Shown in pieces: positions 9,773 to 42,306 of a stretch of DNA of 42,306 bases (the stretch's first letter is position 1; every line of letters starts with the position of its first letter). Source of the stretch: a virus; the IMG/VR virus record IMGVR_UViG_3300021057_000009, positions 1 through 42,306 of that record; one strand, given 5' to 3'. The translations under genes and the position numbers were made by a program. The notes below the pieces were generated by a model. The model did not search any database. It worked only from the letters and a program-made list of their open reading frames with translations, and was not told where the DNA came from.

Positions 9773-9780
9773 GGTAAAAC

Positions 9781-10086: not shown

Positions 10087-10120
10087 CCCCTTGTTATCCC
10101 CCTCATAACTACTCCTCCAG

Positions 10121-10356: not shown

Positions 10357-10374
10357 GCGGCCCGTTAGGGACGC
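10357..10374 (+). repeat. GC-rich hairpin element (family copy, plus orientation)
   Basis: The plus strand reads CTCTTT-CGCGGCCC-GTTA-GGGACGCC-CAGAAT. Arms are identical to copy 7900-7916. Confidence 0.6.
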
Positions 10375-11109: not shown

Positions 11110-11111
11110 CC

Positions 11112-11570: not shown

Positions 11571-11572
11571 TA

Positions 11573-11719
11573 TCAGTTCTGTATGGATTGCTCTAACTTA
11601 TTGATGTGAAATATCAGTGCCTGTAGATCCAATTCCCGCACTACCTGTTCATAGACCTTATCGCTGACGGAATAGCCCGTATCGGTTTTTTCCTCATAGA
11701 CCACTACACGAACTCTCAC
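11573..11719 (-). CDS. Hypothetical 48-aa protein (GTG start)
   Basis: Own translation: VRVRVVVYEEKTDTGYSVSDKVYEQVVRELDLQALIFHINKLEQSIQN. SD AGGAGG lies 5 nt upstream. GTGA overlap with the upstream stop. Confidence 0.45.
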   Translation of the reverse strand: MRVRVVVYEEKTDTGYSVSDKVYEQVVRELDLQALIFHINKLEQSIQN

Positions 11720-12312: not shown

Positions 12313-12329
12313 TTAGCTCCTTAGTTGAC

Positions 12330-13160: not shown

Positions 13161-13341
13161 TGGCTACCTCCAATACCTCACAGCTACTCATCGGTACACG
13201 AACCAGTGAATTCGTGTTCTCATCCACACCCGTAATAGTGACAACAGGTTCTTTGAAGTATTTCTCCATTCCTTGAATCTTCATGATGAGGACTACTTTC
13301 ACCCTATCCCCTATCTGCATCATCGCCTCCTTCGGTTTCAC
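13153..13341 (-). CDS. Hypothetical protein, about 55-62 aa
   Basis: ORF track entry. Probably starts at an internal Met (MMQIGDRV...) because the 5' end overlaps the nuclease gene. Confidence 0.5.
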   Translation of the reverse strand: MKPKEAMMQIGDRVKVVLIMKIQGMEKYFKEPVVTITGVDENTNSLVRVPMSSCEVLEVANA

Positions 13342-14209: not shown

Positions 14210-14243
14210 AACGAAAAAGTCGTGTCATTTTTTTGTCATGGCC

Positions 14244-14252
14244 TGTGGATAA
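14244..14252 (-). promoter_or_regulatory. DnaA box (TTATCCACA on minus strand)
   Basis: tgtggataa is an exact reverse complement of the 9-mer consensus. Confidence 0.6.
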
Positions 14253-14285
14253 CTTCATCAGTATCTTCATATTAGTTCGCTTTAT

Positions 14286-14294
14286 TGTGGATAA
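14286..14294 (-). promoter_or_regulatory. DnaA box (TTATCCACA on minus strand)
   Basis: tgtggataa is an exact match, in the same orientation as the first box. Confidence 0.6.
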
Positions 14295-14529
14295 AGGTGA
14301 CAAAAATGACGCTAAATGACAATTTTTTTTCAGTTTTGTCATTTTGCAAACCTCATAGGTACAATTAGTTAAGTTATGCAATGACAAAAATGACGTTTTT
14401 TTCTTATATTCTTTCTTATTCCACTACGACCTTTAGAAAGGTAGCCGCTGCGGGACGCATATATAAGGAAGGAAGGAGATATATATAGAATATATATATA
14501 TATATGTTTGAAAATTTGCGTCATTTTTG

Positions 14530-15837
14530 TCATTTTGTCATTTGAGTCACTAATTGAGTCACTGGACGAAGACCGATTCCGATCCATAATCTTGACTCAC
14601 TTGAACGGTCTTCTGAGATATCTGGGAGATACTTTTTAAGTAGTTTTCCAAATCTACTTTTACCCAGTGGTTTGTACCCGTTTTCATCGCAGTAATCAGA
14701 GTAGGCTGAGTAGAGGGTATTTTTGGGGATGGATAGGACACTGGCCACTACGCAGCACTCTTCGATAAAGCCTACGTAGTTGTTGTTTTCTTTTAGGTAA
14801 TCAATCTTAGACTGTCTAACGGATTCTGAATCGGAGAAGATTCGATGAGTCAAAAGGCGGTGGTAGCCTTTAAGACACCAATTGAGAATGCCTGATTTTT
14901 CGTTTTTAAGCTGTTCTGTGAGGTTTTTGTTCTGTTTGGCCTCGGGTATCTGTTTATTGAATTGAATAGGCAGGATGCGCCTGTAAAAGGCATCTGTGCG
15001 GTCTTCTATGCGTGGGTATTGGTTAAAAGCGAAGATTAGTTTACAGGTATTGCGGAATTTGAACGGGTGGCAGAACTTTCTTTCAGCGGCGATTACCTCT
15101 CCAGATACTAACTGTTTGAAGGTAGATTCATAGACTGTGGTTTTTGTATTTGTTTCAGTGGAGATATTGACCATTCGCCCAAAGAATTCGGCCAGGTAGT
15201 TTGGGTTCTTGAACTGTTCCATTGGTACAGTGGAAACATTCTCGGAGCCGAAGAGGGATTCAAGGACGTTTAGAATGACGGATTTTCCATTGGCTCCGTC
15301 CCCTATCAGCATCAGGGCTTTTTCTTGGTGTGTGTGTCTACAGAGGGAATAACCGATGAATTCCTGGATGATGGTAATTTTTGATGGATCATCACCCAGG
15401 ACTTCGGATAAAAAGGATTCCCACTTTGGGCAAGAGGCGTTGGGCTCATACTTCGTGTTGAGTTGGTTGATGCTGATATAGGGTTCGGTGTGACTCATTA
15501 GGGTTAGTTTGTCTAAATCCAGGATACCGTTTTGGACGTTGAGGAAGGTGCTTACTTGGTCCAGTAGCTCCGGGTTCCACCAAGTCTCTGCGGCAAGTGA
15601 GTTTTTGACTTCTTTGAACAGGTGGATGGAGAATTTATCCCCCACTATGTCCTTAATCATCTTGCCGATGACGATATCTGATGTGGCGCGGTAGACACCT
15701 TCTTTGTAGATATAGAAAACGTCATTCATGAAGATGATGCCGCCGTGACAGAGGTTGAGGATTTCATGCGAAATTGCGTTTGGATTGATCTTGGAAGAAT
15801 TGCGGAATGGATTCTCATCAGTTTCTTGATAGTTCAT
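14530..15837 (-). CDS. P4/D5-type SF3 replicative helicase (primase-helicase family; no primase domain recognised)
   Basis: 435 aa. Walker A LIGDGANGKS. The KLIFAFNQYPRIEDRTDAFYRRILPIQF block is typical of the phage/plasmid primase P4-family C-terminal domain. Confidence 0.85.
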   Translation of the reverse strand: MNYQETDENPFRNSSKINPNAISHEILNLCHGGIIFMNDVFYIYKEGVYRATSDIVIGKMIKDIVGDKFSIHLFKEVKNSLAAETWWNPELLDQVSTFLNVQNGILDLDKLTLMSHTEPYISINQLNTKYEPNASCPKWESFLSEVLGDDPSKITIIQEFIGYSLCRHTHQEKALMLIGDGANGKSVILNVLESLFGSENVSTVPMEQFKNPNYLAEFFGRMVNISTETNTKTTVYESTFKQLVSGEVIAAERKFCHPFKFRNTCKLIFAFNQYPRIEDRTDAFYRRILPIQFNKQIPEAKQNKNLTEQLKNEKSGILNWCLKGYHRLLTHRIFSDSESVRQSKIDYLKENNNYVGFIEECCVVASVLSIPKNTLYSAYSDYCDENGYKPLGKSRFGKLLKKYLPDISEDRSSESRLWIGIGLRPVTQLVTQMTK

Positions 15838-16650: not shown

Positions 16651-17370
16651 ATGTATATACACTTGACAGCCATGGAAACCGACAAAACAGAAATTATGAC
16701 TGATCAATTAGAAGAATTTCATCATTTTTTGTACAAGCTCATGGCAAAAAAAGTAATCAGTCAGTCAGAGTTAGCAGAGAAGTTGAATTTCAGTCGTTCA
16801 TATATTTCGCAGTTACTCAGCGGTGAGAAGAAAGCCCCTCGTCCGGTTAAGATGGAACAATTGGCACAGGCACTTGATTGCAATAAGGAAGAATATGATG
16901 CGCTCATGAATTATGCGTATCAACGTGCGTTGGGAACGAATTATTCTTTGGATCGTCAAGTGCATATTGATGCTGCCAGAGTGAATTTTATTCCGATAAT
17001 TGAATGGGATTATTTGGATAAATTAGATTTCACGCAGTCCGCGTTGCCACTTGATGGCGTGGGTGTAGTTGATGATGTTGCCACTGAGTTTAAGAATAAG
17101 AACTTATTTGCGCTGATTGTGCATGATGACTCGATGGAACCGGAGTTTAAGGTTGGTGATACGATTATCGTAGACCCTCATGCAAAGGTTACGGATAATG
17201 ACTTTGTGATTATCAAGGTCAAGAACGATCAACCTGTTTTGAGAAAATGGAATCGAGTGGATGTGTTGAATCTGCTCCATCCACTGAATCCAGATTACAA
17301 GGATTTAATTTTCAAAGATTCAGAGTGTAAGTTAATTGGTCGAGTGATTGGAAGTCAAGTTAGGTACTAA
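16651..17370 (+). CDS. CI-like repressor: XRE HTH + S24 (LexA-like) autopeptidase
   Basis: 239 aa. ISQSELAEKLNFSRSYISQLLSG is the HTH. VHDDSMEPEFKVGDTIIVDP carries the Ser and VLRKW the Lys of the S24 dyad. Confidence 0.85.
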   Translation: MYIHLTAMETDKTEIMTDQLEEFHHFLYKLMAKKVISQSELAEKLNFSRSYISQLLSGEKKAPRPVKMEQLAQALDCNKEEYDALMNYAYQRALGTNYSLDRQVHIDAARVNFIPIIEWDYLDKLDFTQSALPLDGVGVVDDVATEFKNKNLFALIVHDDSMEPEFKVGDTIIVDPHAKVTDNDFVIIKVKNDQPVLRKWNRVDVLNLLHPLNPDYKDLIFKDSECKLIGRVIGSQVRY

Positions 17371-22942: not shown

Positions 22943-23391
22943 TACCTTTCCTCCGAGATGTATTTCTTATAGAATTCTTGCCTTGTGAAGACTTTGACGG
23001 GAGCGCACTTTTTTCTTCTGGCTTCTCCAACGAAGTGTGTACACATGAAGTTTTGTCTGAAGAATAAGTGCTTGAGTACGAGTATGGCTTGTGCCTTTCT
23101 AAACGGTTTTCTGATAAAAATGTTCGCAAGATAACAGACATTGCCTGTTTCCACATCTTCACCAACTGCGGAGAAGGGTTCACCGCAGATAATTCTTCCG
23201 AAGTTGTGGAAAGAAATTCTCCAAGATTCAACGTATCCTTGTAGGTAGTTATCGGTGTCGCATGAGTATAGGATTCGCCCTTTTTTAAGCAGCGACTCGA
23301 AGTAGATTGCTGAATCTGCTTCCGATAATTTCTTTTCATGCCAGTTTTCTTCGGTTTGATAGATTTGGACAAGTTGATCAACCAAGCTCAC
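22942..23391 (-). CDS. Hypothetical protein, 149 aa
   Basis: Preferred over the overlapping same-strand frame 22935-23381, whose product is a basic low-complexity string. Confidence 0.5.
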   Translation of the reverse strand: MSLVDQLVQIYQTEENWHEKKLSEADSAIYFESLLKKGRILYSCDTDNYLQGYVESWRISFHNFGRIICGEPFSAVGEDVETGNVCYLANIFIRKPFRKAQAILVLKHLFFRQNFMCTHFVGEARRKKCAPVKVFTRQEFYKKYISEER

Positions 23392-24506
23392 GTTGCATTG
23401 GGGGTTTCGATGAGTTGCGTAGTGGAAATCAACTTACCGTTGAATCTTTGAGCCGTGGCTGTAGCAGAGCCGTTGAGATACATGGCGTTACCGGCATTGT
23501 CACCAACTCGGAAAGTAAATTCGGTGTAATCGGTGCTGGATGGTGTGTAGACGTATTCGATGCTGGCTGTAGTTGATAAGTCTGAGTTACCTCCGTTAGC
23601 CACTACGACATCAACGGCATTAGCCGCCCCATCCTGAAATACAGCAATAATGGCGTAAGAGTTACCTCCAGCGGATATTTGTATACTTCCACGAAGAGCC
23701 ACAGTTCCTGTAGTAGTAGTGGGCCTAAATCCGATGGTCATTGAGGAGATTGCATTCCCCTCTCCTATTTGTGGGATGGTATTGTCGAGAGGAATGGTAG
23801 TTGATCCCAGACTTGAGTAAGCTCCTGTACTCCTCACTACTTGGTTAGGAATGCCCATCTCAGCCAGGTTTCCGACTCCATATGTGTCTAACTCACCACT
23901 GCCGGTAGAGTTCATACGAAACCAGCCAATTACGCGGTAGACGGTGCCAGACCAAGTGACATATCTCTTCGTGCCGTTGGTGTTGTCTACGTCATAGTTC
24001 GAGTGAGTAGGCGCTGTCGTGTGCATTCGGATTTCTCCAGATGCGTTAACGCCTACATATCCAGTAGTACTGACTGCCCTTAGTGACGAGCCGCCAGCCC
24101 AGTCTGCGGCTGTGGTTAGAGTCAGGGTAGTGGAGGAAGTTTTGGTGATAGCTGTGTCATCGACCTCCAATATCCCAGGAGAAACAGTCATTGTGGTTGT
24201 AGAAGCTTGCTCCACGAACATTTCAGAACGGTAATTTCTGGAGACGATTGTTGGTAAATTGGCAGTTGGTATAGTTCCAGCGCCACTTGGGATACTGCTA
24301 AGACTCGTAAGAGCTGCTCCAGAAACCTTACCGGCAGTAGTAATCTGAGCTAACTTCGAGTCCACTATTGCGGCAGTGTTTGAGATATTGGCGTTGGAGA
24401 TAGAGCCGTTGAACTCGTTGTAGATAGTATCGAAGTTCGAGTTATGCTCTGAGGCTACAATCGTATTACCGGCAGAGAATGTGTTGGGTTTGCTAATTAG
24501 TGCCAT
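23388..24506 (-). CDS. Tail fibre / receptor-binding protein (paralog B)
   Basis: 372 aa. Its N-terminal ~55 aa (ALISKPNTFSAGNTIVASEHNSNFDTIYNEFNGSISNANISNTAAIVDSKLA) are shared with 25025-26017. The rest is Thr/Ser/Gly-rich. Confidence 0.7.
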   Translation of the reverse strand: MALISKPNTFSAGNTIVASEHNSNFDTIYNEFNGSISNANISNTAAIVDSKLAQITTAGKVSGAALTSLSSIPSGAGTIPTANLPTIVSRNYRSEMFVEQASTTTMTVSPGILEVDDTAITKTSSTTLTLTTAADWAGGSSLRAVSTTGYVGVNASGEIRMHTTAPTHSNYDVDNTNGTKRYVTWSGTVYRVIGWFRMNSTGSGELDTYGVGNLAEMGIPNQVVRSTGAYSSLGSTTIPLDNTIPQIGEGNAISSMTIGFRPTTTTGTVALRGSIQISAGGNSYAIIAVFQDGAANAVDVVVANGGNSDLSTTASIEYVYTPSSTDYTEFTFRVGDNAGNAMYLNGSATATAQRFNGKLISTTQLIETPNAT

Positions 24507-24515
24507 GTGTCTCCG

Positions 24516-25025
24516 TCAAAACAACTGAAAGAAGTTTCCAGTTCCAGCTACTGCGTCTTGTTGATAAAACTCAAGCTCAGCACAATACTGTTCGTTCACC
24601 GCGCCGTTTGATGTGAATCTCAAACGGTGGTAGCGATAAGCCGTCGACGTGTCGATCCCGCTTGTGATGTCGCGTGTTTGCGGCGGACCTGTCCCGGAAG
24701 TCGTTGTAAAGTTATCTGTATAAAGATTGGTCCAGTTTGAATTGTCGTTAGACCCCTGAAGCGTTATCGTATAAGACAAATTTTCTAACGCATTAAAGCT
24801 GCCGGTATTATCCAGGTTCATGCCGGTAACGGTGTAACGATCAATCGTATGTGTTACGCCGACGCCCCAATCTTTGCCGCAAGTCGTGTTGTTTGTATTG
24901 GCGGCACCACGAGCGGATTGTGTATGATCCTGGTTAGCATTACCGTCGAACGCAGCAGCCAGACCTCCCTGAAAGGTCATATCCCCTATTGTAGTGCCAT
25001 CGGTTCTCGGTATCAGAGTTGACAT
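24516..25025 (-). CDS. Discoidin (F5/8 type C)-like carbohydrate-binding protein
   Basis: 169 aa. The pattern FDGN..., ...GSNDNSNWTNLY..., YRYHRLRF...AELEFYQ resembles galactose-binding-domain-like modules. It lies between the two fibres. Confidence 0.5.
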   Translation of the reverse strand: MSTLIPRTDGTTIGDMTFQGGLAAAFDGNANQDHTQSARGAANTNNTTCGKDWGVGVTHTIDRYTVTGMNLDNTGSFNALENLSYTITLQGSNDNSNWTNLYTDNFTTTSGTGPPQTRDITSGIDTSTAYRYHRLRFTSNGAVNEQYCAELEFYQQDAVAGTGNFFQLF

Positions 25026-26017
25026 TAGGCTTCAGTTACAGTGGCAACTGCATCCCATTTGGTGTCAGTAGCGTTGTAGATACATCCGACATAAGTGGTT
25101 TTATTGACCGTAGTTGTCGTTGGTAATGTGATGCCCACTGCCCTAAACACTGCATTCCAAGTAAGCGCTCTGGCTGTTCCGTTATCCTTTAATCGGATTA
25201 TCAACCTCTGACCCGCCGTGGGGGTTCCCGTGGTTGAAATAGTAGTGGCATTAGCCATAGCGGTGAGTTGATATTGATCCGTAACATCAACGTCAATTTC
25301 TGCCGTAGAGTCATCAGTAGTGGTGACAACTCTCGAAGTGATTCTCTTATTAGTCAGCGTGTTAGTGCTTGATATTGAAGGTATGACTACTCCTTCAACC
25401 GCTAACACACCGGCAGAGGAGCGACTGAGGGTTGTATCACTGGCGTGACCTAATTCGACTGACCCAACACCCAAAGCAGTGGTAGTAGAGGCAGTGATAC
25501 CGGCTACTGGAAGCCCTGTACAATTGGTCAGTGTTCCAGATGAGGGGGTTCCTAACGCACCACCGGAGGCTAAGAGAGTTCCAGTGGTTGGTAGGGTAAC
25601 GTTAGTAGCACCAGTAGTGGTAAGGGTAAGAGAGTTGGCTCCTGAAGTAATAAAATCAGCAGCCGTGTTTAAAGCTCCTCCTAGAGTAACTGTGCGATCC
25701 GAATCGCCAGTGGTAATCGTCAGAGTCTTATCAGCCGTCAGGTTTGATCCTGGAACAATGCTCAAACCGTGAGTTGCATTAGTATCCTTAATCTTGAGCC
25801 CGGTATTGTCTAAGTAGACTGATGTAATATCCGTATTAGCGCCACTTGCCGCCACACCGGAGAGTTTGGAAATTGAAATAGCAGCCGTAGAGGAGATATT
25901 GGCATTTGTGATATTGCCGTTGTAGTCACTGTAGATAGTATCGAAGTTGTCATTTTGCTCCGCAGCATAGATGATGGCACCGGAGGCAAATGTGTAAGGT
26001 TTGGTAATAGTTGCCAT
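25025..26017 (-). CDS. Tail fibre / receptor-binding protein (paralog A)
   Basis: 330 aa. Its N-terminus ATITKPYTFASGAIIYAAEQNDNFDTIYSDYNGNITNANISSTAAISISKLS is paralogous to 23388-24506. The body is Thr-rich and beta-like. Confidence 0.7.
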   Translation of the reverse strand: MATITKPYTFASGAIIYAAEQNDNFDTIYSDYNGNITNANISSTAAISISKLSGVAASGANTDITSVYLDNTGLKIKDTNATHGLSIVPGSNLTADKTLTITTGDSDRTVTLGGALNTAADFITSGANSLTLTTTGATNVTLPTTGTLLASGGALGTPSSGTLTNCTGLPVAGITASTTTALGVGSVELGHASDTTLSRSSAGVLAVEGVVIPSISSTNTLTNKRITSRVVTTTDDSTAEIDVDVTDQYQLTAMANATTISTTGTPTAGQRLIIRLKDNGTARALTWNAVFRAVGITLPTTTTVNKTTYVGCIYNATDTKWDAVATVTEA

Positions 26018-26814: not shown

Positions 26815-28334
26815 ATGTTGGTCTCCAAGTGAGGCAACATACCTATACCGTCTATCCGAAAAGTTTCGCTGATCGTAGAATTCTTAAAGCCAAAACGAAC
26901 AACGCGACCCCGGCCAAGAAGATCACGACGCTTAACAGAACCACCAGAGCCACCATAAACATTAGTGTCGTATACACCTGTTCCATACAGAGAACCCCCC
27001 GTGGCTGTACTAAATGACTGGCTGTAGGTATCAGAGTCCTCAAAATCATAGGAATACACGAAGGTTATAGTTGCGTTGTTGTTAAGGTAGTAGATGTAAA
27101 CTTGAGGAGTTCCTTTTTGGTTGACGATATCTCCGTAGTCAAACCATTTGGTGTAGTAGTAAGCGTCTATGGCCGTAGATGTGCCAGCAGGGTTATCATT
27201 GGCTCCTGTGTCAGCCCGGTAGACATAACCTGAATAATCGCCAAAGTAGATTCGCTCCTCTCCAGAAGTGAATACAATGGCATAGCAATTGGCGTTATGA
27301 CCTTTATAGACAGAGAACGCATTGTTGAATGAATCCCACACAAGACAGCGATTGTGAGTGGAATCACCTGAATTGGTGCAAGACATCCAGTAGCGATTCT
27401 TTGACTTCTGATATGCGGTCACTGCGTTGGGGAATCTAGTCTTAGCGAATGTTTCCAGTGTTTGAGTCACCCTGTCGCTGACTTTGAAGCTATTATTCCC
27501 ATCGAAGTAATACAGTCCGTCTTGGGAGAAAAAAACTAAACCATTGTCAATGTCTTGAGGCGTGTATCCTGCGGCACATCCTACGTGACTGGGGGTTTTC
27601 TCAAACACGAAGGGTATGTCGGTATCCCCTGTGAAGGTACCACCATGGATGGACCGTTCTTTGGGAATGATGAGCTTATTCCCCAACACTTTGAGCCCGG
27701 TAATCTCCTGACCGTCATTGCGGTCAATGTCTACGAAGTTAGTGGCAGTCCAAGTAAGGGCTTTGAGATCAGACCAGTAGACACGGGATGGATGAGCCGT
27801 TCCAGATACAGTCACGTTAGCCAAGAATACGTAGTTATTGAACACAGTGATGTACTTGGCTTTAGTCAGTCCTGTAGGAACAGTCATGGCTGAACCATTA
27901 CCCGAACCAGTCCACTGGACCGGTACATCTACGCTATTAGTCCCTAACGCTGTGTCGAGGAAAGTAGTCCATTGGAAGTGGTTATTATTCCCCGCCGTGA
28001 TAGTGAGTGAGCCGGTAATGTCATCCCAAGTGCCATCCAGTGAATCCATCTTGGCTAATTTGTTTCCACATGTTCCGATTAGGTAATCAGTGCCAGAGGA
28101 GAGTTCAAACCAGTGAAGACTGGTCCATGTGGCTCCTGAGTTAAATGCCGAGGAGTTAAGAGTGGTATATCCGTTTCTTTTCAAAACGGAACCAGAACGA
28201 TCAAAGTCAACATTCTGGAGCTTGCTTGACTCGTTATCCTGTAAGGTTAAAGGTCCAAAAGTTGAATTCAGTCCACCTGAATTTGACTTGTAACCTATCG
28301 GAATACTCTTGGAGGTAAGCTTCTCTCCAGCCAT
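26811..28334 (-). CDS. Tail structural protein, 507 aa (nozzle/tubular-type candidate)
   Basis: Large beta-rich protein in the tail block of a phage without tape-measure or sheath genes. The assignment is by position only. Confidence 0.5.
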   Translation of the reverse strand: MAGEKLTSKSIPIGYKSNSGGLNSTFGPLTLQDNESSKLQNVDFDRSGSVLKRNGYTTLNSSAFNSGATWTSLHWFELSSGTDYLIGTCGNKLAKMDSLDGTWDDITGSLTITAGNNNHFQWTTFLDTALGTNSVDVPVQWTGSGNGSAMTVPTGLTKAKYITVFNNYVFLANVTVSGTAHPSRVYWSDLKALTWTATNFVDIDRNDGQEITGLKVLGNKLIIPKERSIHGGTFTGDTDIPFVFEKTPSHVGCAAGYTPQDIDNGLVFFSQDGLYYFDGNNSFKVSDRVTQTLETFAKTRFPNAVTAYQKSKNRYWMSCTNSGDSTHNRCLVWDSFNNAFSVYKGHNANCYAIVFTSGEERIYFGDYSGYVYRADTGANDNPAGTSTAIDAYYYTKWFDYGDIVNQKGTPQVYIYYLNNNATITFVYSYDFEDSDTYSQSFSTATGGSLYGTGVYDTNVYGGSGGSVKRRDLLGRGRVVRFGFKNSTISETFRIDGIGMLPHLETNI

Positions 28335-29569
28335 TACATCCTCGACATAGGGCCGTAGTTGCCTCCCAATTGGAGGTAATCAAGGCCGTGGAATGAGTAA
28401 GGGTGACGCTTCATTGAGTGCTTGGGTCGAAGAAGTTGGGGCAGCCAATCCATTCGATCCATGTTGGTTCGCCTGAGAGTTTTCATTTCATCTGTATACA
28501 AACCGAAGAATTTATCCCCCTCAGTGGTCTGATTCTGCTCATACTTCATCTTGGCAGTGGATAGGAGAATGAGAGCCTCATCAAAGTCCTGACCCAGTTC
28601 ATGCACATCCTGGTTGTTCACCAATCGGTATGGATTCTTGTAGTAGTAGATATTGATCTCAAACGCTGATTGAGGAAGGGGCCATATCTGCATCTTCTTG
28701 TATAAAATACCGGCAGTAGTGTCCCCTACTGGTAATACTGCAATAGTAGTATTGGCCGAATCCGCATCCACGGTGATACGCCCAACTGTTGAACTATCCT
28801 TCACCACCCGCTCAACTTCTGAGAATGATTTCGTGCCGCTGACTGCCGTGGTGCCGTTGGAAGCATTGGTAGTAATTTGCTCGAAGTCTGGATAGCCAGA
28901 AACAGTGCCGAACACAGTGATGACTTTCGATGTATCACTGGAAGAGGAACTAGCAACCCTCATAACCCCTGCTTGCTTGGGTTGAGAGATCACCATGTTT
29001 TCCCCCCACATCCTGTAATGAGTCGGAGTAGAGGAAGTGTTCAGCGTCACACCGGAGGAGAAAAATTCTTGATCTGGGATGAAAGAAAGTTGATAAGGGT
29101 ACCCAAACTCATCATGCCAAGCAAATATCTTCGTAGCTTGAATGGGTAGGTTGTACTCATGATTTCCGTAGATCTTATAAGTCTGAGTAGTCGAAGTAGT
29201 TCCGTCGTAGGATTTATCAACAGTGAATGTAGTCTCACCTGTGATAGTGCGAATTTGATAAACATCAGTGGAACCACCAAGAGTCACGTATCTGCCGATC
29301 TTAATGCCAGCAGTGATGAGTAGAGCCCCCGTCACAGTGACATTCTTCGACCCATTGGTAACGGCCACATTGCCGCTTCCTGTCGTGTAATCCCCCTCAG
29401 TCGTGACATAAGTCTTCCGTCTCAAATTAACCCACGGACACTCACGGGCTATGCGGAATAAAGACGCATTGATCGTGTTCTTGATACCATCATCGAAACC
29501 AGTTCCCCCTTGGTCCCGAGTGGCCCTTCGCTTTACTTCTGTTTGAAGGTCTTGAAAGGTGAAAGACAT
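28334..29569 (-). CDS. Tail/adaptor structural protein, 411 aa
   Basis: Position between the head genes and the 507-aa tail protein, with 1-nt overlaps on both sides. Confidence 0.5.
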   Translation of the reverse strand: MSFTFQDLQTEVKRRATRDQGGTGFDDGIKNTINASLFRIARECPWVNLRRKTYVTTEGDYTTGSGNVAVTNGSKNVTVTGALLITAGIKIGRYVTLGGSTDVYQIRTITGETTFTVDKSYDGTTSTTQTYKIYGNHEYNLPIQATKIFAWHDEFGYPYQLSFIPDQEFFSSGVTLNTSSTPTHYRMWGENMVISQPKQAGVMRVASSSSSDTSKVITVFGTVSGYPDFEQITTNASNGTTAVSGTKSFSEVERVVKDSSTVGRITVDADSANTTIAVLPVGDTTAGILYKKMQIWPLPQSAFEINIYYYKNPYRLVNNQDVHELGQDFDEALILLSTAKMKYEQNQTTEGDKFFGLYTDEMKTLRRTNMDRMDWLPQLLRPKHSMKRHPYSFHGLDYLQLGGNYGPMSRM

Positions 29570-30267: not shown

Positions 30268-30624
30268 TTATTGAAGAACAACAGCAATAGCGGTGCATCG
30301 GGCAGTGGCCTGGTTACCGCTTGAACCATCGACGGTTAAGTTGAGTAACGTATCGGCTGAGAGGTCATAACCCTCTTCGCCAAAATCAACCACATACACT
30401 CCAACAGCATCTGCATCCGCTTCAAAGAATCTAGTTCCACCAACTCCGTCCTCTAAAGCCACCTCACCACCCGCCGCAGCAGCAGCAACAGTGACTGTTA
30501 CAATGGCCTTCTTAATTCTTAGCTTTTTTCCAGTCCCCTGAGCCGCGATAACGGTCTTATCCGCATCGCCATTCGCTGCTTCAGCGGTCCCTTGAACTTT
30601 TTTGTAAATCTCACCCGTTAACAT
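30268..30624 (-). CDS. Small Ala/Gly/Val-rich beta protein, 118 aa (decoration-like)
   Basis: ORF track entry. Overlaps the upstream glycosyltransferase stop by 14 nt. Confidence 0.5.
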   Translation of the reverse strand: MLTGEIYKKVQGTAEAANGDADKTVIAAQGTGKKLRIKKAIVTVTVAAAAAGGEVALEDGVGGTRFFEADADAVGVYVVDFGEEGYDLSADTLLNLTVDGSSGNQATARCTAIAVVLQ

Positions 30625-31537
30625 TCACTTCCTCCTTGATCAACGTCTTCATGTGACTCAGCATCGTTCCCACTCGATGATCAATGGTGTGATGCTTCAT
30701 AACTTCTTCAAAGCCAGCTTGTGCAATCTTCTCTCTCTCGTCGTCATGAGCCAGATAATATTTCGCCTTTTCCACCATTTCATCCATCGTCTTATAAGTG
30801 GCAAGGTGTACACCTTCTTTGAAGAATTCATCAATGTCTGGCAGATGATTGGTTAATAGGAACGACCTCGATCCCAACACCTCAAAAACTCTCATGTTCA
30901 GATCATCCAGCATGGAAATGTTGAACACGATTTTGGACTGGGCATACTTCTCAGCGGCTTCGTTGAATAAACGCTGACCGTAGTAAAAGTTTGGGAATTC
31001 CCGGAATAACCGATCTAGAGAATCCTTCCTGTTGGCTGAGTTGATATGCCCGATAAAGCAAACGTCATATTTTTTTGTAAGAAAGTTGTACGGCTCAGGT
31101 TTGTTGCGATTGAATGAATCCGGGTCTAAATAAGCTTCAGGCTCAACAGCGTGAGGTAACCAGTGGACATTGGACACACCATCACGCTTCATCTCTTCCA
31201 CCGCTCTCTTCTGAGCGCAGAAGGTCAGGTCAGCTTGTTTGGCGCATTGGAGCCTGTAGTCATAGCCAAGGTGAGTGTCACTAGCCCAGTAGATCAGTGG
31301 TTTTGCGGGAGGATAAGCTGGCTTATAAGGCAAAAGTCCCGTCAATCCATCTTCACCCCAATCCACCCATACATTGGCGTCATATTGACCAAATGGATTC
31401 AGGTCACCGTCTGGGATCAGATGATCTACTTCGAGTAATCCCTGCTCTTGCATACGCTTAAGGGAACGGAATACATACAGAGGATTCCCATCATTGCGTC
31501 CAAGCCGATTTTCGTAGTAGATCGCCAGTCTTAGCAT
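30611..31537 (-). CDS. Glycosyltransferase, CgeB / Glyco_trans_1_2-like
   Basis: 308 aa. The C-terminal half YDVCFIGH...KIVFNIS...MRVFEVLGSRSFLLTN...EGVHLATY...EREKIAQAG matches the remembered CgeB-type GT pattern. Confidence 0.7.
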   Translation of the reverse strand: MLRLAIYYENRLGRNDGNPLYVFRSLKRMQEQGLLEVDHLIPDGDLNPFGQYDANVWVDWGEDGLTGLLPYKPAYPPAKPLIYWASDTHLGYDYRLQCAKQADLTFCAQKRAVEEMKRDGVSNVHWLPHAVEPEAYLDPDSFNRNKPEPYNFLTKKYDVCFIGHINSANRKDSLDRLFREFPNFYYGQRLFNEAAEKYAQSKIVFNISMLDDLNMRVFEVLGSRSFLLTNHLPDIDEFFKEGVHLATYKTMDEMVEKAKYYLAHDDEREKIAQAGFEEVMKHHTIDHRVGTMLSHMKTLIKEEVNVNG

Positions 31538-32151
31538 TCAACCCCCTTCTCAATAGCCATGGCCCCATGTGACTCCAACGACTCCCGAATAACCTTGTAC
31601 TCAGAATGTTTGTCTAAGAAGTCACAGACAGCATCCCCCATACCAAGTCCCATCTTCTCGTACTTGGAAATCTCTTCTCCGGGGTACGGGTCGCTCGTAC
31701 CGTATCTGTAGGCTTGGCCTGAGTTCTTTCGATAAGTCTCCGTGTCATGCATGACAATCAGGCCACCTGGTTTCAACTTAGGATGAAGGGCTCGAAGTTC
31801 CTCCCTCATAGTCCAGTAGTTGTGATCGGTGTCGATGGAGCAGAAGTCGATCTCATGATCCCTGAAATATCTCATGGCTTTGTAGGACAGGTCATAAATC
31901 CACTCAAACTCTTTTGGAGAATAACGATTATCAAGTTTCATCGTTTCCTCCGCATAAGGGGCATCACTGATGGTATAGAGTTTGAAAGAGTAGATTTCGA
32001 GAAGGGATAAAATCTGCCTGGTGTTCTCCCCTGAAGCGCCGCCACACTCCACTAACACCTTCGGTTGGCGCTCAAGGATGAGTTCCTTCACGTTGAGATG
32101 CTTATCAAAGTGGTTATGCATTAAGCGGTATCGCAGTGACATCGCCTTCAT
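31531..32151 (-). CDS. Class I SAM-dependent methyltransferase (Methyltransf_24/O-MT-like); start may be ATG 32121
   Basis: 206 aa. Motif I LVECGGASGENT and post-I/II LKPGGLIVMHDT. Confidence 0.7.
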   Translation of the reverse strand: MKAMSLRYRLMHNHFDKHLNVKELILERQPKVLVECGGASGENTRQILSLLEIYSFKLYTISDAPYAEETMKLDNRYSPKEFEWIYDLSYKAMRYFRDHEIDFCSIDTDHNYWTMREELRALHPKLKPGGLIVMHDTETYRKNSGQAYRYGTSDPYPGEEISKYEKMGLGMGDAVCDFLDKHSEYKVIRESLESHGAMAIEKGVEC

Positions 32152-33445
32152 AGAAACGATCCAAACTGTTCATGTAAGGCTCACACTTCACCACTGGCTT
32201 ACCCAACACAGCTAAGAAGGAGATTTGATTCTCAGTGTCCTGAGTGTTGCAGTATGCAAACCCAATAGCATCGGCAAGGTGTTTTATGGAATCTTGAGTA
32301 AATGCGTGGTAATGAGTCGGGTCGAGGGGGATGGTATTGAACTTAGTTTCATCCGGTAGGGCCAAGATCAACCTACCACCTGGTTTGAGAATCCTAGTCC
32401 ATTCCTTCAATGTCTGAACCGTATCGGTGCAGTGTTCCAGGATGTGTCTGGCAACTACTACGTCAAACTCATTGTCACTAAAGGGTAAAGGTTTCTCGAC
32501 ATCTGCCACCACATCGGCAACGGATACTTCATTCAGTCCGTGAAGAATTGGTGTGGGAGTTCCTTTTGGTACCCTGTCCACACCTACAGCCCACGCTACA
32601 GTCTTCTTACCGCCACAACCCAGTTCCACTACCTTCTCTTGAGGCTCGATGAATGAGGAGATTAAACACCCCTCTTTGTCATCGGGTACATAGGGAATAC
32701 CCGGATTGACTTGAGCCGAGATAGTATCGAAGAAAGTCTTAAACCCATGCTTCCTGATAAGCGCCTGATTGGTCCTATCAGTCATCTCACGGGAGTTCCA
32801 TCCACCGATGCGATTATGATCCCCATGCACCCTGGTCCCTGTACGGAAACCGGCATGGATGATAAAGGCTTGAGGGGTTACCAATAATTTCTTCCCTGCT
32901 TGCCTTAAGCGAATAGATAGATCAAAATCATCGCCACCAGGCAAAGTATCATCCACCCCTCCCACGGCATCGAGATCGGCCCTCCGTAGCATCACAGTGA
33001 AGAAAATAAGCCAGCGAACTTCGGTATCTCCGATGACTGCGTTACGAGAGTAAATCGACTGGCACCCTGCCGCCGTTGTGGTAATAGGACCAACAGCCGC
33101 TATATCGGGATTACGGAATTTGATAAGCATCTTCTCGTAAAAATTTAGAGAAGAAGTCGGAATCACAGTGTCATCGTTCTGAAAGACAACAAATGGGGCA
33201 TCTGATTTCTCAAGCCCCTTCTTTAACCCACCCTCCCAACCTAAATTCTCAGGACTGTCGATAACGGATACATTCCTCAAACCATGTAACTCATCCTTCA
33301 GTGGCTGCTTCCCGTTATTCACCACAATGAGACGGCCAAAACCACACTCGGTGATCCCAGTCTGAATAATTGACTTCACACAGAAGTGCATATCCTCAGG
33401 GTTATTCCAGGTCGGGATGATGATATCTACCGAGGATTTTGACAT
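32114..33445 (-). CDS. Bifunctional GT2 glycosyltransferase - SAM methyltransferase fusion
   Basis: 443 aa. The N-terminus has VDIIIPTWNNPED, FQNDDTV and GGDDFDLSIRL (GT-A/GT2). The C-terminus has VVELGCGGKKT and ILKPGGRLILALPDE (Methyltransf_11/23-like). Confidence 0.8.
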   Translation of the reverse strand: MSKSSVDIIIPTWNNPEDMHFCVKSIIQTGITECGFGRLIVVNNGKQPLKDELHGLRNVSVIDSPENLGWEGGLKKGLEKSDAPFVVFQNDDTVIPTSSLNFYEKMLIKFRNPDIAAVGPITTTAAGCQSIYSRNAVIGDTEVRWLIFFTVMLRRADLDAVGGVDDTLPGGDDFDLSIRLRQAGKKLLVTPQAFIIHAGFRTGTRVHGDHNRIGGWNSREMTDRTNQALIRKHGFKTFFDTISAQVNPGIPYVPDDKEGCLISSFIEPQEKVVELGCGGKKTVAWAVGVDRVPKGTPTPILHGLNEVSVADVVADVEKPLPFSDNEFDVVVARHILEHCTDTVQTLKEWTRILKPGGRLILALPDETKFNTIPLDPTHYHAFTQDSIKHLADAIGFAYCNTQDTENQISFLAVLGKPVVKCEPYMNSLDRFYEGDVTAIPLNA

Positions 33446-34321
33446 TCAGCCTCCAATTACACAGGTGGGTTGATATTTCTTATAACCATTCGCTGACTTC
33501 TTATCCCAAAGGGGATCTTCTTTCCTGATCCTCTCCACATACTCCTCATCAATGTTCAAAGGACGAGAAAGATGACCCAACTTAGTGGCCGTATCCATGA
33601 ACACCCTGGCTCCGACCTTCTTGGCCTTGTAGCAGAAAAGAATGTCTTCCCCGGTTCCGCAGGTGGACATAAACCGTGGAGTATCCATCTTGTCCAATAC
33701 CCATCTCTTAATCAGCGCAGCCCCGAACCCCACGGCATCGCACTCGACCAATTTATCCTTTGGATAATTCATGACCGATGTGTTCATGAAGTAATCCTTC
33801 TTATTCACATGGTCATAGCCTTCAATAGCGGCATAGATCACAGGCTTATGGGGATAATTACGAGTAAATGCTAGGGGGGCCACAATATCGACGTTATGAG
33901 CATACAAACGCTCAAACATGTCATCAGGACACAACATATCGTCATCAATCATGTAAAGGTAGTCACAATCCCACTCCACACACATCTTGGCTGCTTCCTC
34001 CCTGGCAACTGGAGTGAAGATTCGCCCGATGACAGCGAAGCGGAACTCAAACCTCTTTCCATGAATCTCTCTGGATGATTGAATTGGGTGCATCTTGACC
34101 CACTCAGCCAATATCTCCTGGGCGAGTTTCGGGTCACGATTCGCAATTAGTTCAGCCATTCCCCTTGCAACTTTGGCCCCCTCTTCTAACTTCCCCAAGT
34201 GCATGAAATTGACCAATCGGTTACAGTAAGCTTCCACATGGCAGTAGCCCATTGAAGGAATAGCGACACAAACTCTCACTGTGTTTGGCTCTTTCACTTC
34301 ATTAGGATCAGCTACAATCAT
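33446..34321 (-). CDS. GT-A-fold glycosyltransferase (family-2-like)
   Basis: 291 aa. VCVAIPSMG..., YLYMIDDDMLCP (DxD), VDIVAPL, GFGAALIKR, GEDILFCYKAKKVG, LGH. Confidence 0.65.
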   Translation of the reverse strand: MIVADPNEVKEPNTVRVCVAIPSMGYCHVEAYCNRLVNFMHLGKLEEGAKVARGMAELIANRDPKLAQEILAEWVKMHPIQSSREIHGKRFEFRFAVIGRIFTPVAREEAAKMCVEWDCDYLYMIDDDMLCPDDMFERLYAHNVDIVAPLAFTRNYPHKPVIYAAIEGYDHVNKKDYFMNTSVMNYPKDKLVECDAVGFGAALIKRWVLDKMDTPRFMSTCGTGEDILFCYKAKKVGARVFMDTATKLGHLSRPLNIDEEYVERIRKEDPLWDKKSANGYKKYQPTCVIGG

Positions 34322-34557
34322 CGGATTAGCCCTGCCCAGATCATGACCAGTTCATGCAGCTTAAGAATCACGGGCTGCTTCAACTTATGCCCAAAGTGAG
34401 GAGCGAAAGGACACCGATGAGGGGTGGCACTATGCCCATCCGAAGGACAGGTATGCATAGGAACCAGCCCCCCATCGGTGTCACAACGAAAGACTTCCAA
34501 AGCCTTCTTGAATGGCCTTGAAACCTTCATAGTTGGCTTTAGAAGTCCCAATTTCAT
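34318..34557 (-). CDS. Small Cys/His-rich protein, 79 aa
   Basis: ORF track entry containing CDTDGGLVPMHTCPSDGHSATPHRCPFAPHFGH. Overlaps both neighbours. Confidence 0.45.
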   Translation of the reverse strand: MKLGLLKPTMKVSRPFKKALEVFRCDTDGGLVPMHTCPSDGHSATPHRCPFAPHFGHKLKQPVILKLHELVMIWAGLIR

Positions 34558-35000
34558 TACAGCGCTCTCACCACACCACCCACGTAAGCCGCAGCCGAAA
34601 TAGTGTTCGTCGTGGCGGCGTAGACGTAGCGGTAGAGTAGAGTCGAGATGGCCTGATCCGTCAGCGAGGAGGCGAAGTTACCAGCCACCGCAGAAGGCTT
34701 CAGCGTGTCACCGCGAGTAACGGTGATCGAGCTACCTTCATTGGAGATGAGAACCGAGGAAACATAACCCCAAGCACGAACAAGTCCAAATGCGTTGATA
34801 GCGATATCCTGAACCGCCACACCAACGAAACCTTTGTACGTACCCCCAGTCATCCTCACTGCTGAAGCACCATCAATTGACGCACCCGCCTGGACCAGGC
34901 AAGCACCCAGACCAGTCGTAATGGAACCACCCCCGTCAACATTCTTGACGAGGATCGTCACCGTTTCGGCGTCCGCTCTATTAAGTTGCTGAATCTGCAT
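34557..35000 (-). CDS. Head decoration/cement-like beta protein, 147 aa (DUF2190-like guess)
   Basis: Gly/Ala/Val-rich and located two genes after the capsid gene. The family is guessed from composition and position. Confidence 0.45.
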   Translation of the reverse strand: MQIQQLNRADAETVTILVKNVDGGGSITTGLGACLVQAGASIDGASAVRMTGGTYKGFVGVAVQDIAINAFGLVRAWGYVSSVLISNEGSSITVTRGDTLKPSAVAGNFASSLTDQAISTLLYRYVYAATTNTISAAAYVGGVVRAL

Positions 35001-35079
35001 TACATTCTCCTTTTCTTCTTACCTAAGCTGTGGCTTGGGTTATTAACCACCGGCCCTGGGTCTTAAGCAGAAGTCATTG

Positions 35080-35352
35080 TTAACCGTAAATAAGTGTGAA
35101 TCGTCCGTTGGTCACGTTCGACTGGTTGTTCACCGTAACGGTGATAGTTCCGCTGCTAACCGCAACTGAGCAGGGCGTGGGGCGATCTTCCCCTGAAGTA
35201 GCGTCCTGGTTATAAAAGTTCACCAGATACACTCTCCCACCCTTCAGCGTCACAGTTCCCTCAGCGTCACCAGCATTACCCGACCAATCACCGACGAGTC
35301 CGAGAACACTCCCGAAACTCACGGCTTTGACGTTGCTAGTAGCGAAGGCCAT
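35080..35352 (-). CDS. Small beta-rich head-associated protein, 90 aa
   Basis: ORF track entry immediately downstream of the capsid gene. Confidence 0.5.
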   Translation of the reverse strand: MAFATSNVKAVSFGSVLGLVGDWSGNAGDAEGTVTLKGGRVYLVNFYNQDATSGEDRPTPCSVAVSSGTITVTVNNQSNVTNGRFTLIYG

Positions 35353-35370
35353 TTAATCTAACCCTCCCTA

Positions 35371-36321
35371 TTAGGCAGTGATTCCTGTGAGCTTGAAATG
35401 TCTACGCCGGTTGTTCGTGCAAAGATTCCCGCGCCAGAGGATGAACGCCACTTTCGCCGTCTGGTTGACCGGCATAACAAAGGGAGTCATCGCAAAGTCG
35501 GTTTCCGAATCAACGACCAAATCGACATAGTTCAAGTTCAAACCGAACATGAGACCGGAGCCGACAAAGTTTCCATACACAACAGGGATACCCTTGAAGG
35601 TCAGGTTCGTCGCACCAGCGTTGAACGTGAGGTTGCCGTTTGAGATGCGCTCAAGCGGAAGCCTGGTCTGCTCGAAATACTGGAAGATCGTCTTATTCGT
35701 AAAATAAACCGAAGGACGATCCTCAGAAGCAGACGAAGCCACTGCGTAAGTCGCTGTCGTCATGTCAGTGAGACCCTGGGCCGCGAAGGAACCAGAAGCC
35801 GTCACAGTTGCTTGCCACCAAGTCTCAGTGCCACCGGCCACCGTTCCCAGAGTCCCTGTATTCGCCAGAGTTTCCAGGTCGATGAGGTTATTGGCACCAG
35901 ACACGGGGGTAGACAACGCCTGTTCCAGACGCTTCTGAATCGCCAATTCCGAGCGTTCCATCTTCTCTCCAACGAGGTCGATGATCTTATGCTGATCACC
36001 CGAGTTCGCACGTTCCTCGTCACGAGTAAGCTGGATCGGCTCATAGGCGTTCTGCCAGCGATATTCCACCAGGGTTTCCTGATCCGACTGGGAGGTATTC
36101 AGGCTCGTAGAACCGAGATAGAAACCACCAGCGTTCTGGTCGCCCTTGATGAGCGGGTACACAATCGACGTACCACCGTTGACCATCCGCTTCCTGGACT
36201 TCAGGGTACGGAGGAGAACGTTGGAGTTATACACGTTATCCGTAATCGTCTTCGAGTAGTCAGCTATGGAAGTAGCTAACGTAGCGTCGAGTGACGACGG
36301 GATGAAAAGTTCATTAGCCAT
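35371..36321 (-). CDS. Major capsid protein (HK97-fold by position and size)
   Basis: 316 aa, directly after a scaffold-like gene and after the portal. Typical size for podovirus-type major capsid proteins. Confidence 0.7.
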   Translation of the reverse strand: MANELFIPSSLDATLATSIADYSKTITDNVYNSNVLLRTLKSRKRMVNGGTSIVYPLIKGDQNAGGFYLGSTSLNTSQSDQETLVEYRWQNAYEPIQLTRDEERANSGDQHKIIDLVGEKMERSELAIQKRLEQALSTPVSGANNLIDLETLANTGTLGTVAGGTETWWQATVTASGSFAAQGLTDMTTATYAVASSASEDRPSVYFTNKTIFQYFEQTRLPLERISNGNLTFNAGATNLTFKGIPVVYGNFVGSGLMFGLNLNYVDLVVDSETDFAMTPFVMPVNQTAKVAFILWRGNLCTNNRRRHFKLTGITA

Positions 36322-39864: not shown

Positions 39865-39907
39865 AAAAAAAGAAAGACCAGCCCAGGCTTGTGGCCCGAA
39901 CTGGTCT
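39865..39907 (-). terminator. Rho-independent terminator (minus strand) between terminase block and portal
   Basis: The minus strand reads AGACCAG-uucgggc-cacaa-gccuggg-CUGGUCU. That is 7 Watson-Crick pairs extended by 7 more including 3 G-U. It is followed by UUCUUUUUUUA. Confidence 0.7.
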
Positions 39908-39963
39908 GGTGTCCGATTGGGGAGGAGGCGGTGTCCCTGCTCGGAGATGAGACTTTTAGTCGT

Positions 39964-40122
39964 CTATTTCGTTTTCAAAACTTGTGACTGAACATGAACA
40001 ATGACAGTTTTCACCGTCTCACTCTGTTCGCGTCGTCTTAGAATTGATAGAACTTCATCCTCAACGCCCATTTGAACTATAAGACTCACGAGAGTACGGG
40101 CTAGGGAAGTTCGATCATTCAT
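39964..40122 (-). CDS. Hypothetical 52-aa protein
   Basis: Own translation: MNDRTSLARTLVSLIVQMGVEDEVLSILRRREQSETVKTVIVHVQSQVLKTK. The SD is weak. Confidence 0.3.
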   Translation of the reverse strand: MNDRTSLARTLVSLIVQMGVEDEVLSILRRREQSETVKTVIVHVQSQVLKTK

Positions 40123-40174
40123 AATTTAGTTCTTTCTTGCTTATATGTCAAGTAATTTGTTATAATAACAAGTT

Positions 40175-42179: not shown

Positions 42180-42306
42180 CTCCCCCTCCCCCAATACCCC
42201 CCGACCGACTTTTGGTATCCCTAACAAAACAATGGCGGATGTTTGGTTTCCTAACACAAAGTATAGTCATAAGTCTTTTATTATCAATAAGTTGCTAATA
42301 TAAAGA
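42180..42306. repeat. Terminal redundancy, copy 2 (identical to 1-127)
   Basis: See the 1-127 entry. Confidence 0.95.

Follow-up and report, generated by a model that had tools for sequence, protein, structure and literature searches.

What is modified by the glycosyltransferases and methyltransferases that a short-tailed phage encodes among its head genes? The question is raised by IMG/VR virus record IMGVR_UViG_3300021057_000009, analysed over positions 1 to 42,306 (the window, 42,306 nucleotides (nt) in all). A cassette of five minus-strand open reading frames (ORFs) at 30611-34557 encodes three glycosyltransferase (GT) domains and two methyltransferase (MT) domains. The gene just upstream on the same strand, p147 (34557-35000), encodes a protein with the predicted fold of capsid decoration (cement) proteins. 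The locus is probably a capsid glyco-decoration module, in which a virion protein, most probably p147, would be glycosylated in the cytoplasm late in infection and its glycan capped by methylation. An earlier note on this DNA had read the cassette as decorating virion proteins. Every computational check that it proposed came out in favour of that interpretation; virion protein glycosylation stays, like all functional statements made here, an inference from sequence, predicted structure and synteny.

The decoration gene, the enzymes and their joint transfer

The five ORFs described in the earlier note, with stop and start codons that overlap or abut, were all confirmed. In the direction of reading they encode CH79 (79 amino acids (aa); 34318-34557), a GT-A fold glycosyltransferase (291 aa; 33446-34321), a fusion of a GT2 domain and a methyltransferase domain (GT2-MT, 443 aa; 32114-33445), the stand-alone S-adenosylmethionine (SAM) methyltransferase MT206 (206 aa; 31531-32151) and the CgeB-like GT-B glycosyltransferase GT1_308 (308 aa; 30611-31537). 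The distances from stop to start, in nt and negative where genes overlap, are -1 (p147 to CH79), -4 (CH79 to GT-A), 0 (GT-A to GT2-MT), -38 (GT2-MT to MT206), -7 (MT206 to GT1_308) and -14 (GT1_308 to p118, a small beta-rich protein encoded at 30268-30624, minus strand). All these junctions overlap or abut, and 30268-35000 is therefore without intergenic space. The cassette is located inside an uninterrupted same-strand run of late genes; promoter-like sites are not enriched around it (12 observed versus 20 expected in shuffled sequence) and terminator-like sites are not in excess. Given this overlap, and the fold of p147, translation of the cassette is coupled to that of the capsid decoration gene. 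All cassette proteins are soluble (maximum Kyte-Doolittle hydropathy over 19 residues, 1.16), and no transmembrane segment was found in any of them on this scale.

p147 has 568 homologs and no family match. An AlphaFold2 model built on 52 homologs (pLDDT 79, pTM 0.77) was compared with the PDB by Foldseek. The top matches are all capsid decoration proteins: cyanophage Pam3 (8hdt_G, E 3e-4) and HFTV1 (8qsy), further the phi29 gp8.5 capsid-binding head-fibre base (6qyy) and the proteins of T1, FCWL1, TW1, Sf11 and E217, and more weakly lambda gpD and phage 21 SHP. TM scores are moderate (0.5-0.64) and identities low (10-19%), with a Foldseek probability of 1.0 and a coherent set of matches. According to this model, p147 has the fold of capsid decoration proteins. 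The earlier assignment of 34557-36321 to capsid and decoration genes holds for p147 and for the major capsid protein (MCP, 316 aa; 35371-36321, minus strand), which matches phrog_9953, major head protein (E 1.2e-39).

The count of three GT and two MT domains is based on Pfam, PHROG and AlphaFold2/Foldseek taken together, and profile and structure searches thus support the folds that had been proposed from motifs. The motifs themselves (MIDDDM, IIIPTWNN, FQNDD, DDFDLS, VVELGCGG, ILKPGGRLILALPD, LVECGGASGENT and LKPGGLIVMHDT) are all present in the translations. The fusion protein comprises a GT2 (GT-A) domain (about aa 1-218; 32792-33445), which matches Glycos_transf_2 (aa 8-124, E 1.2e-11, 45.3 bits versus a cutoff of 23.3) and Glyco_tranf_2_3 (aa 6-218), and a class I SAM methyltransferase domain (about aa 267-443; 32114-32647), which matches Methyltransf_11 (aa 274-361, E 1.2e-14, 55.2 bits) and Methyltransf_23 (aa 267-397). 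The solved structure nearest in sequence to the GT2 domain is PglI (9jma, E 1.8e-6); PDB sequence matches of the MT domain include MitM and the D-glucose O-methyltransferase 6uv6. MT206 matches Methyltransf_24 (E 1.7e-13) and lies just under the cutoff of RMNT_CmcI, rhamnosyl O-methyltransferase (22.2 versus 23.2 bits).

The C-terminal part of GT1_308 matches Glyco_trans_1_2 (PF13524, the family named after CgeB; E 2.4e-28, 99.3 bits versus a cutoff of 25); its N-terminal match to DUF3880 is below threshold (20.7 versus 25.2 bits). This GT-B has 1245 homologs, the best 120 of which are 55-70% identical to it, many on contigs of 39-44 kb. Some homologs carry the JGI name 'spore maturation protein CgeB', others 'O-antigen biosynthesis protein'. 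The 291-aa protein has only a sub-threshold Anp1 match in Pfam and matches phrog_12406, glycosyltransferase (E 1.3e-11). Its AlphaFold2 model (pLDDT 87.8, pTM 0.88) firmly predicts a GT-A fold: the best Foldseek match is STIV A197 (E 3.9e-10, 18% identity), followed by COLGALT1 and LH3, which are collagen hydroxylysine glycosyltransferases, then yeast Mnn9 and mimivirus R699. In a comparison with predicted viral structures, it comes closest to GT-As from uncultured tailed phages and to PLOD-like GTs from giant viruses. The residues DDD126-128 are invariant across 58 aligned homologs. PDB sequence searches with GT-A, GT-B and MT206 gave nothing significant, and NCBIfam gave no equivalog, every match being far under its cutoff.

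CH79, the first cassette gene product, has a zinc-knuckle-like motif, C-x2-(C/D)...H-x2-H, and no family match. The description of this ORF as Cys/His-rich is correct for this genome, but the richness is mostly genome-specific; the residues invariant in seven homologs are C25, T27, H54, G56, H57, P62 and E69. Since most Cys and His residues are not conserved, the idea of a Cys/His-rich zinc protein was retained only in part. An apparent fusion of CH79 to GT-A in locus L015 (327 aa) was rejected: the extra N-terminus results from an upstream alternative start and has no similarity to CH79.

Related loci were collected via the MCP, via the contigs that encode GT-B and p147 homologs, and via a p147 profile in IMG/VR. 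They come from metagenomes and some may be redundant at population level; co-occurrence was counted by tblastn at E ≤1e-5 and depends on this threshold. Among the 44 non-redundant loci that bear p147, all 36 with at least 4.2 kb downstream carry homologs of GT-A, GT2 and GT-B in the same order, and hence in the same position as here; the other eight are truncated contigs, so that no locus with room for the cassette is without it. Two loci with a 'p147-like' gene and no cassette (L057 and L058) were discarded as spurious matches inside long Ser/Thr-rich fibre proteins. At least one methyltransferase is encoded in 34/34 loci with a long match to the last GT: the fused domain only in 28, the fusion and a stand-alone Methyltransf_24 protein in four, stand-alone enzymes only in two. 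Methylation therefore looks constant and the number of MTs variable. The GT2-MT fusion is kept in 32/34 of these cassettes, and MT206 homologs or stand-alone MTs, present in 6/34, are a variable accessory. By tblastn, CH79 homologs are found in 4/4 loci of the window's own lineage and in 19/32 of a distant one.

Three groups of loci were distinguished. The own lineage (group A, n=4) has the cassette; identities to the window are 57% for TerL, 64% for the portal, 79% for the MCP, 61% for p147 and 55-57% for the GTs. A sister lineage (group B, n=10) has no cassette; TerL is 48%, the portal 55% and the MCP 64% identical, and p147 and the GTs are absent. The distant lineage (group C, n=32) has the cassette; TerL is only 24%, the portal 21% and the MCP 32% identical, p147 60% and the GTs 50-56%. 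The block of p147 and enzymes is as alike between remote lineages as within its own and has therefore been exchanged as one unit. The decoration slot of group B holds an unrelated 280-aa protein in place of p147 and the cassette, and in lineage A the block has replaced such a resident slot protein. The possibility that p147 is a shortened form of the 280-aa protein was rejected (hhalign probability 0.2%, no similarity); the profile of the latter has no PDB sequence match. The best reason to think that the enzymes act in concert with the decoration protein is this joint lateral transfer.

Possible acceptors of the glycan

In the proposed mechanism, p147 would be made late, from the same head operon as CH79, the three soluble GTs and one or two SAM MTs. 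One GT would put the first sugar on Ser/Thr of a virion protein, most probably p147, in the cytoplasm and from host nucleotide sugars. The remaining two would lengthen the glycan to a short oligosaccharide, whose terminal sugar(s) would be O-methylated, and thereby capped, by the MT(s). The modified decoration protein would then bind the expanded capsid and form a dense coat of methylated glycans. CH79 might conceivably act as adaptor or chaperone. The CgeB-like GT-B is a candidate initiator because Thr112 of CgeA is the proposed O-glycosylation site of Bacillus subtilis CgeB, whose gene shares an operon with that of CgeA; GT-A is another, as enzymes that act on proteins are among its closest structural relatives and STIV A197 is believed to modify a capsid protein. 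Possible benefits are greater colloidal stability or hydrophilicity, a shield against proteases, masking or adhesion.

p147 is preferred to the MCP or the fibres as acceptor because it is transferred together with the enzymes. An acceptor inside the moving block would fit the transfer pattern better than one that differs between lineages, such as the MCP. Of the candidate substrates named in the earlier note, the product of 34557-35000 is thus the best supported, by fold and co-transfer, whereas nothing specific was found for the Thr/Ser-rich fibres. Fifteen positions of p147 are at least 90% Ser/Thr among homologs.

Several points weigh against this proposal. No acceptor motif could be defined in p147, which has no N-x-S/T sequon, and its many conserved Ser/Thr may simply be structural. 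Nor does the MCP end in a Ser/Thr-rich C-terminal extension like those that are glycosylated in mycobacteriophages. The enzymes closest in sequence to the GT2 domain (PglI; MftF and EpsD, both far below cutoffs) use acceptors that are lipid-linked or small molecules. Some GT-B homologs are, as said, named after O-antigen biosynthesis, and a role in lysogenic conversion is conceivable because the phage is temperate. Fold and family do not identify acceptors.

Glycosylation of a different virion protein (MCP, p90, p118 or the Ser/Thr-rich fibres), with p147 a mere linked neighbour, is a variant of the proposal and not its opponent, and is thought unlikely. The known mycobacteriophage acceptors are capsid and tail-tube subunits, the MCP carries five N-x-S/T sequons, the fibres encoded at 25025-26017 and 23388-24506 contain 26-29% Ser+Thr, and homologs of p90 and p118 travel with the block in some loci. 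The block, however, has passed between lineages with MCPs of only about 32% identity and with fibres that show no detectable similarity, and p147 always went with it; p90 and p118 are found in a minority of cassette-bearing loci only. The main alternative is a role at the host surface, of seroconversion type: an envelope glycan (O-antigen, exopolysaccharide or S-layer glycan) would be modified in lysogens or during infection, which would block superinfection or prevent re-adsorption to debris. The temperate lifestyle (integrase, CI), the resemblance of the soluble GT2/GT4-like enzymes and methyl-capping MTs to those typical of O-antigen clusters, the undecaprenyl-linked or other non-protein acceptors of the GT2 relatives and the JGI name 'O-antigen biosynthesis protein' all speak for it. 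It is nevertheless judged quite unlikely: the cassette is enclosed by the late head operon, has overlapping stop and start codons, lacks its own promoter-like site and is not next to integrase and att (the integrase is about 25 kb away); GtrA, Wzx, Wzy and any membrane protein are lacking; and a host-surface role would not need the strict linkage and co-transfer with a capsid decoration gene seen in about 36 loci.

Statements about absent genes are meaningful because the genome is complete. Bases 1-127 and 42180-42306 form an exact 127-bp direct terminal repeat, and the window is a complete genome, circular or terminally redundant, of about 42.18 kb. A Pfam screen of essentially all its ORFs of at least 100 aa gave no thymidylate-synthase or hydroxymethylase homolog, no TET/JBP protein, no DNA methylase and no GtrA, Wzx or Wzy, in agreement with what the earlier note had said of hydroxymethylase, thymidylate synthase and Gtr flippase; nor did it give a kinase family anywhere in the genome. 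These absences also bear on glycosylation and methylation of the phage DNA as an anti-restriction hypermodification, which is very improbable. Phage GTs are classically DNA-modifying, and MT206 has a weak partial match to phrog_2675, labelled 'DNA methyltransferase' (E 2.8e-6). The known routes to DNA glycosylation, however, need a hydroxymethylase of thymidylate-synthase type or a 5hoC synthase (PMC13326640) or, as described in bioRxiv 10.1101/2023.12.21.572611, a C5-MTase with a TET-like dioxygenase, none of which was found in the complete genome by Pfam. The two MTs, of Methyltransf_11 and of Methyltransf_24/CmcI-like type, are generic class I SAM enzymes of the small-molecule or sugar O-methyltransferase kind and not DNA methylases, and the cassette belongs to the structural, not the replication, module. 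There is equally little reason to expect a methylated oligosaccharide that is free or linked to a lipid or small molecule, comparable to the methylated glucan on mycofactocin, with a role unrelated to the virion surface. The best NCBIfam matches of the fusion protein are the mycofactocin glycosyltransferase MftF and, weakly, the oligosaccharide methyltransferase MftM, but their scores are far under the cutoffs (59 versus 280 and 19.5 versus 200 bits), mycofactocin and carrier genes are lacking, and the fixed linkage to a decoration gene would be left unexplained.

Decoration of the capsid by way of p147 is therefore retained as the proposal. More tentatively, and somewhat short of what could be called probable, the block may be a laterally mobile 'glyco-decoration' cartridge: a cement protein with its own glycosylation and methyl-capping enzymes, swapped into at least two remotely related podophage lineages (TerL, portal and MCP 21-32% identical) and providing hundreds of uncultivated phages with a methylated glycan coat. 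Because the block replaced a 280-aa slot protein in lineage A, the glycan may substitute for a protein surface domain.

Parallels in other systems

Five precedents may be cited by analogy: the mycobacteriophage virion GTs, the Cluster J cassette, CgeA/CgeB, PBCV-1 A064R and STIV A197. According to the accounts in PMC12363180 and PMC12619734, virion glycosylation by phage GTs is proven for mycobacteriophages Che8, Corndog and Myrna (Freeman 2023), and the acceptors are the C-termini of capsid and tail-tube subunits. The window would resemble these phages in having phage-encoded soluble cytoplasmic GTs in or beside the structural genes, with the phage's own virion proteins as targets. The mycobacteriophages concerned are siphophages and myophages of Actinobacteria, whereas the portal here is of SU10/P22 type and the genome has no tail-tube gene. 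The MCP has no C-terminal extension (316 aa, versus 317-320 aa in the full-length MCPs of cassette-less relatives, with end-to-end alignment), and a decoration protein in its own right is predicted to be the acceptor. The enzymes also form a different set here, with a CgeB-like GT-B and always a methyltransferase. Finally, glycosylation is proven there and inferred here.

In Cluster J mycobacteriophages, 8-10 genes are inserted between the capsid and head-tail connector genes; they encode several GTs, SAM methyltransferases, a GT-MT fusion (LittleE gp17), a Ser/Thr kinase and a Zn-binding protein (PMC3706429, 2013). In the record of one such phage, Thibault (L059), gp11-gp19 (9422-15301) are annotated between the major head protein and the head-tail connector and comprise five GTs, a methyltransferase, a kinase, a Zn-finger protease-like protein and the hypothetical protein gp18. 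Of the published architectures, it is the one most like the window's cassette. The slot, the combination of several GTs with a SAM MT, the GT-MT fusion and the Zn-binding protein are shared; the Cluster J cassettes differ in being larger, in their Ser/Thr kinase and in having no adjacent annotated gpD-like decoration gene, and their function is also putative. GT-A is 32% identical over 139 aa (residues 118-256, E 3e-8) to Cluster J GTs such as Thibault gp11. GT2-MT, GT-B and p147 have no Cluster J match, tblastn of these three against GenBank phages gave nothing useful, and the window enzymes other than GT-A have no relative detectable by tblastn in that set. Megablast of 30268-36321 against GenBank phages gave zero matches.

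CgeB of B. subtilis (317 aa, same Pfam family as GT1_308) has been proposed to O-glycosylate Thr112 of the shell or crust protein CgeA, encoded in the same operon, and further GTs to extend the glycan (PMC13577073). In both systems a PF13524 GT of about 310 aa and a small shell-forming protein share an operon, and CgeB would act on its partner from the cytoplasm. CgeA/CgeB, however, serves sporulation in a cell, there is no relationship between CgeA and p147, and the likeness of CgeB to GT1_308 is judged from the shared Pfam family and the names in the sources alone.

A064R of PBCV-1, a protein of GT+GT+MT type, assembles the end of the capsid glycan and methylates it at the 2-O position; together with A061L it finishes the chlorovirus capsid glycan by methylating terminal sugars (PMC9614988). 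The likeness is that of a cytoplasmic GT+MT multidomain protein accompanied by a second, stand-alone MT; the virus differs in being a eukaryotic giant virus with N-linked glycans on its MCP. A064R-D1, which is in the PDB, is absent from the PDB sequence matches of GT2-MT at E ≤0.01. The capsid protein of STIV is the putative acceptor of A197, the best structural match of GT-A, which is believed to glycosylate it while the virus assembles in the cytoplasm (PMC10551542); A197 differs in being a minimal GT-A of 197 aa from an archaeal virus, only 18% identical. The decoration proteins of gpD/beta-tulip type (lambda gpD, SHP, phi29 gp8.5 base, Pam3, TW1, T1) resemble p147 in fold and in gene position between the MCP and the connector or adaptor genes. 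None of them is known to come with dedicated modifying enzymes, and a literature search gave none that does. The hallmarks of Gtr-type seroconversion (GtrA flippase, membrane GtrB, GtrC, adjacency to int/att) are not found in the genome.

The earlier note knew of no comparable case in a short-tailed temperate phage. No description was indeed found for a short-tailed phage or for this gene set, and the literature search gave no paper on a GT/MT block linked to a decoration gene; the Cluster J GT/MT cassette, however, dates from 2013 (PMC3706429), and a GT/MT cassette in the head-to-connector slot is therefore not new. What is new is the phage type (SU10/P22-like portal, short-tailed, uncultivated), the enzyme set with its CgeB-like GT-B and invariable methyltransferase and, above all, the constant linkage to a gpD-like decoration protein and the movement of the complete block from one capsid to another, unrelated one. 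To our knowledge, virion glycosylation by phage-encoded enzymes is demonstrated only in a few mycobacteriophages. If the proposal is true, it extends to a large, environmentally widespread group of uncultivated short-tailed phages, since about 570 homologs of p147 and more than 1,000 of each of two GTs were found. The logic would also differ: a separate decoration protein would come with its own modifying enzymes, exchangeable as one block between capsids, and capsid surface chemistry would be a modular, horizontally transferable trait. The compact operon of about 4.4 kb formed by p147 and the cassette (one putative acceptor, three GTs, one or two MTs) might serve glyco-engineering of phage capsids or decoration-protein display systems. 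Methyl capping would parallel that of chlorovirus capsid glycans and the chain termination of bacterial O-antigens, which hints at convergent control of glycan length.

Genome setting and neighbouring genes

The phage has a GC content of about 47%. It had been described as short-tailed and temperate, and both terms are supported: the former by a portal that matches SU10_portal (48.9 bits versus a cutoff of 30, Pfam) and by a near-threshold SU10_adaptor match (E 1.7e-5, 25.8 bits versus a cutoff of 27) of a 411-aa ORF, the latter by a tyrosine integrase (4261-5460) and a CI/S24-type repressor (16651-17370) found in the Pfam screen. Replication-side genes encode a D5-type primase-helicase, a PD-(D/E)XK nuclease, RusA, an RNA ligase and two YopX proteins. 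The minus-strand late operon comprises TerL, portal, a scaffold-like protein, MCP, p90, p147, the cassette, p118, p141, p77, the adaptor, a 507-aa virion protein and the fibres. The cassette thus lies between capsid/decoration and tail genes, as the earlier note had it, but p118, p141 and p77 also stand between it and the adaptor and tail genes. The adaptor gene (the 411-aa ORF; 28334-29569, minus strand), relatives of which match the same family, is the downstream boundary of the head-decoration region.

The MCP is 24-27% identical to those of Myxococcus phages Mx8/Mx9 and Stenotrophomonas phage BUCT555. The genome has no tRNAs that could point to a host, and an MCP profile scan of GTDB genomes gave no matches. 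The p147 profile gave two short contigs of metagenome-assembled genomes only, from different phyla: L020 (JANLWZ010000078.1) and L021 (JAKPDK010000119.1), both with the MCP-p147-cassette region and binned to Elusimicrobiota and Hydrogenedentota. These phyla were rejected as hosts, the contigs being probably mis-binned phage sequences.

p90 (35080-35352, minus strand), a small protein between MCP and p147, has no family match. Its homologs (39-55% identity) precede p147 in ten distant-lineage loci and in L003, and p90 appears to be an optional part of the mobile block. Homologs of p118 follow the cassette in L003, L024, L030 and L045 (50-79% identity). At the equivalent position, between a cl8 protein and a p141 homolog, the cassette-less relatives have a family of about 100 aa, cl7.

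Other cargo is found at or beside the slot in sister lineages, either a lectin-domain protein or a putative GT with a sulfotransferase. In L010 and L013 (13242-15140), a 632-aa protein with a C-terminal ConA-like lectin domain (Laminin_G_3) is encoded between the decoration-slot protein and the connector genes; because of it, the region from MCP to adaptor seems to be a hot spot for capsid-surface accessories. A gene pair in the cassette-less sister phage L005 (13044-14477) lies just downstream of the cassette slot, between the cl7 protein and the p141 homolog. One member (293 aa) has a DxD-like FEDDQ motif and no family match; the other (183 aa) has the motif HIPKTGGTS and a weak match to a galactose-3-O-sulfotransferase PHROG (E 1.4e-4). 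The pair may be an alternative module that makes sulfated glycans. A protein of about 444 aa with many hydrophobic segments and a TPR-like C-terminus is encoded in L004 (13270-14604), where it adjoins the adaptor gene upstream, and in the corresponding place of L009 (18629-19966), where the fetched sequence showed no adaptor. It matches nothing in Pfam or PHROG and in outline resembles membrane glycosyltransferases of GT-C/PMT type, to which it might be related. Homing-endonuclease genes (LAGLIDADG, HNH) occur near the same variable slots in the structural modules of relatives (L004, 9678-10199; L005, 17921-18274).

Two further features of the late operon may be mentioned. A promoter-like site, TTGACA-17-TAAATT (40151-40123, minus strand), lies just past the TerL stop; beyond it come a 52-aa ORF and, 33 nt ahead of the portal start, a strong terminator-like hairpin (39907-39875; 14-bp stem and T-run). 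In transcription, these elements (39875-40151) could divide the terminase gene from the remaining late operon or serve as an attenuator at this point. At 23388-26017 (minus strand), two fibre-like Ser/Thr-rich proteins of 330 and 372 aa are alike over their N-terminal 50 or so residues and then diverge; the gene between them encodes a 169-aa protein with a weak F5/8 type C (discoidin) match. The pair resembles alternative receptor-binding fibres that share one anchor.

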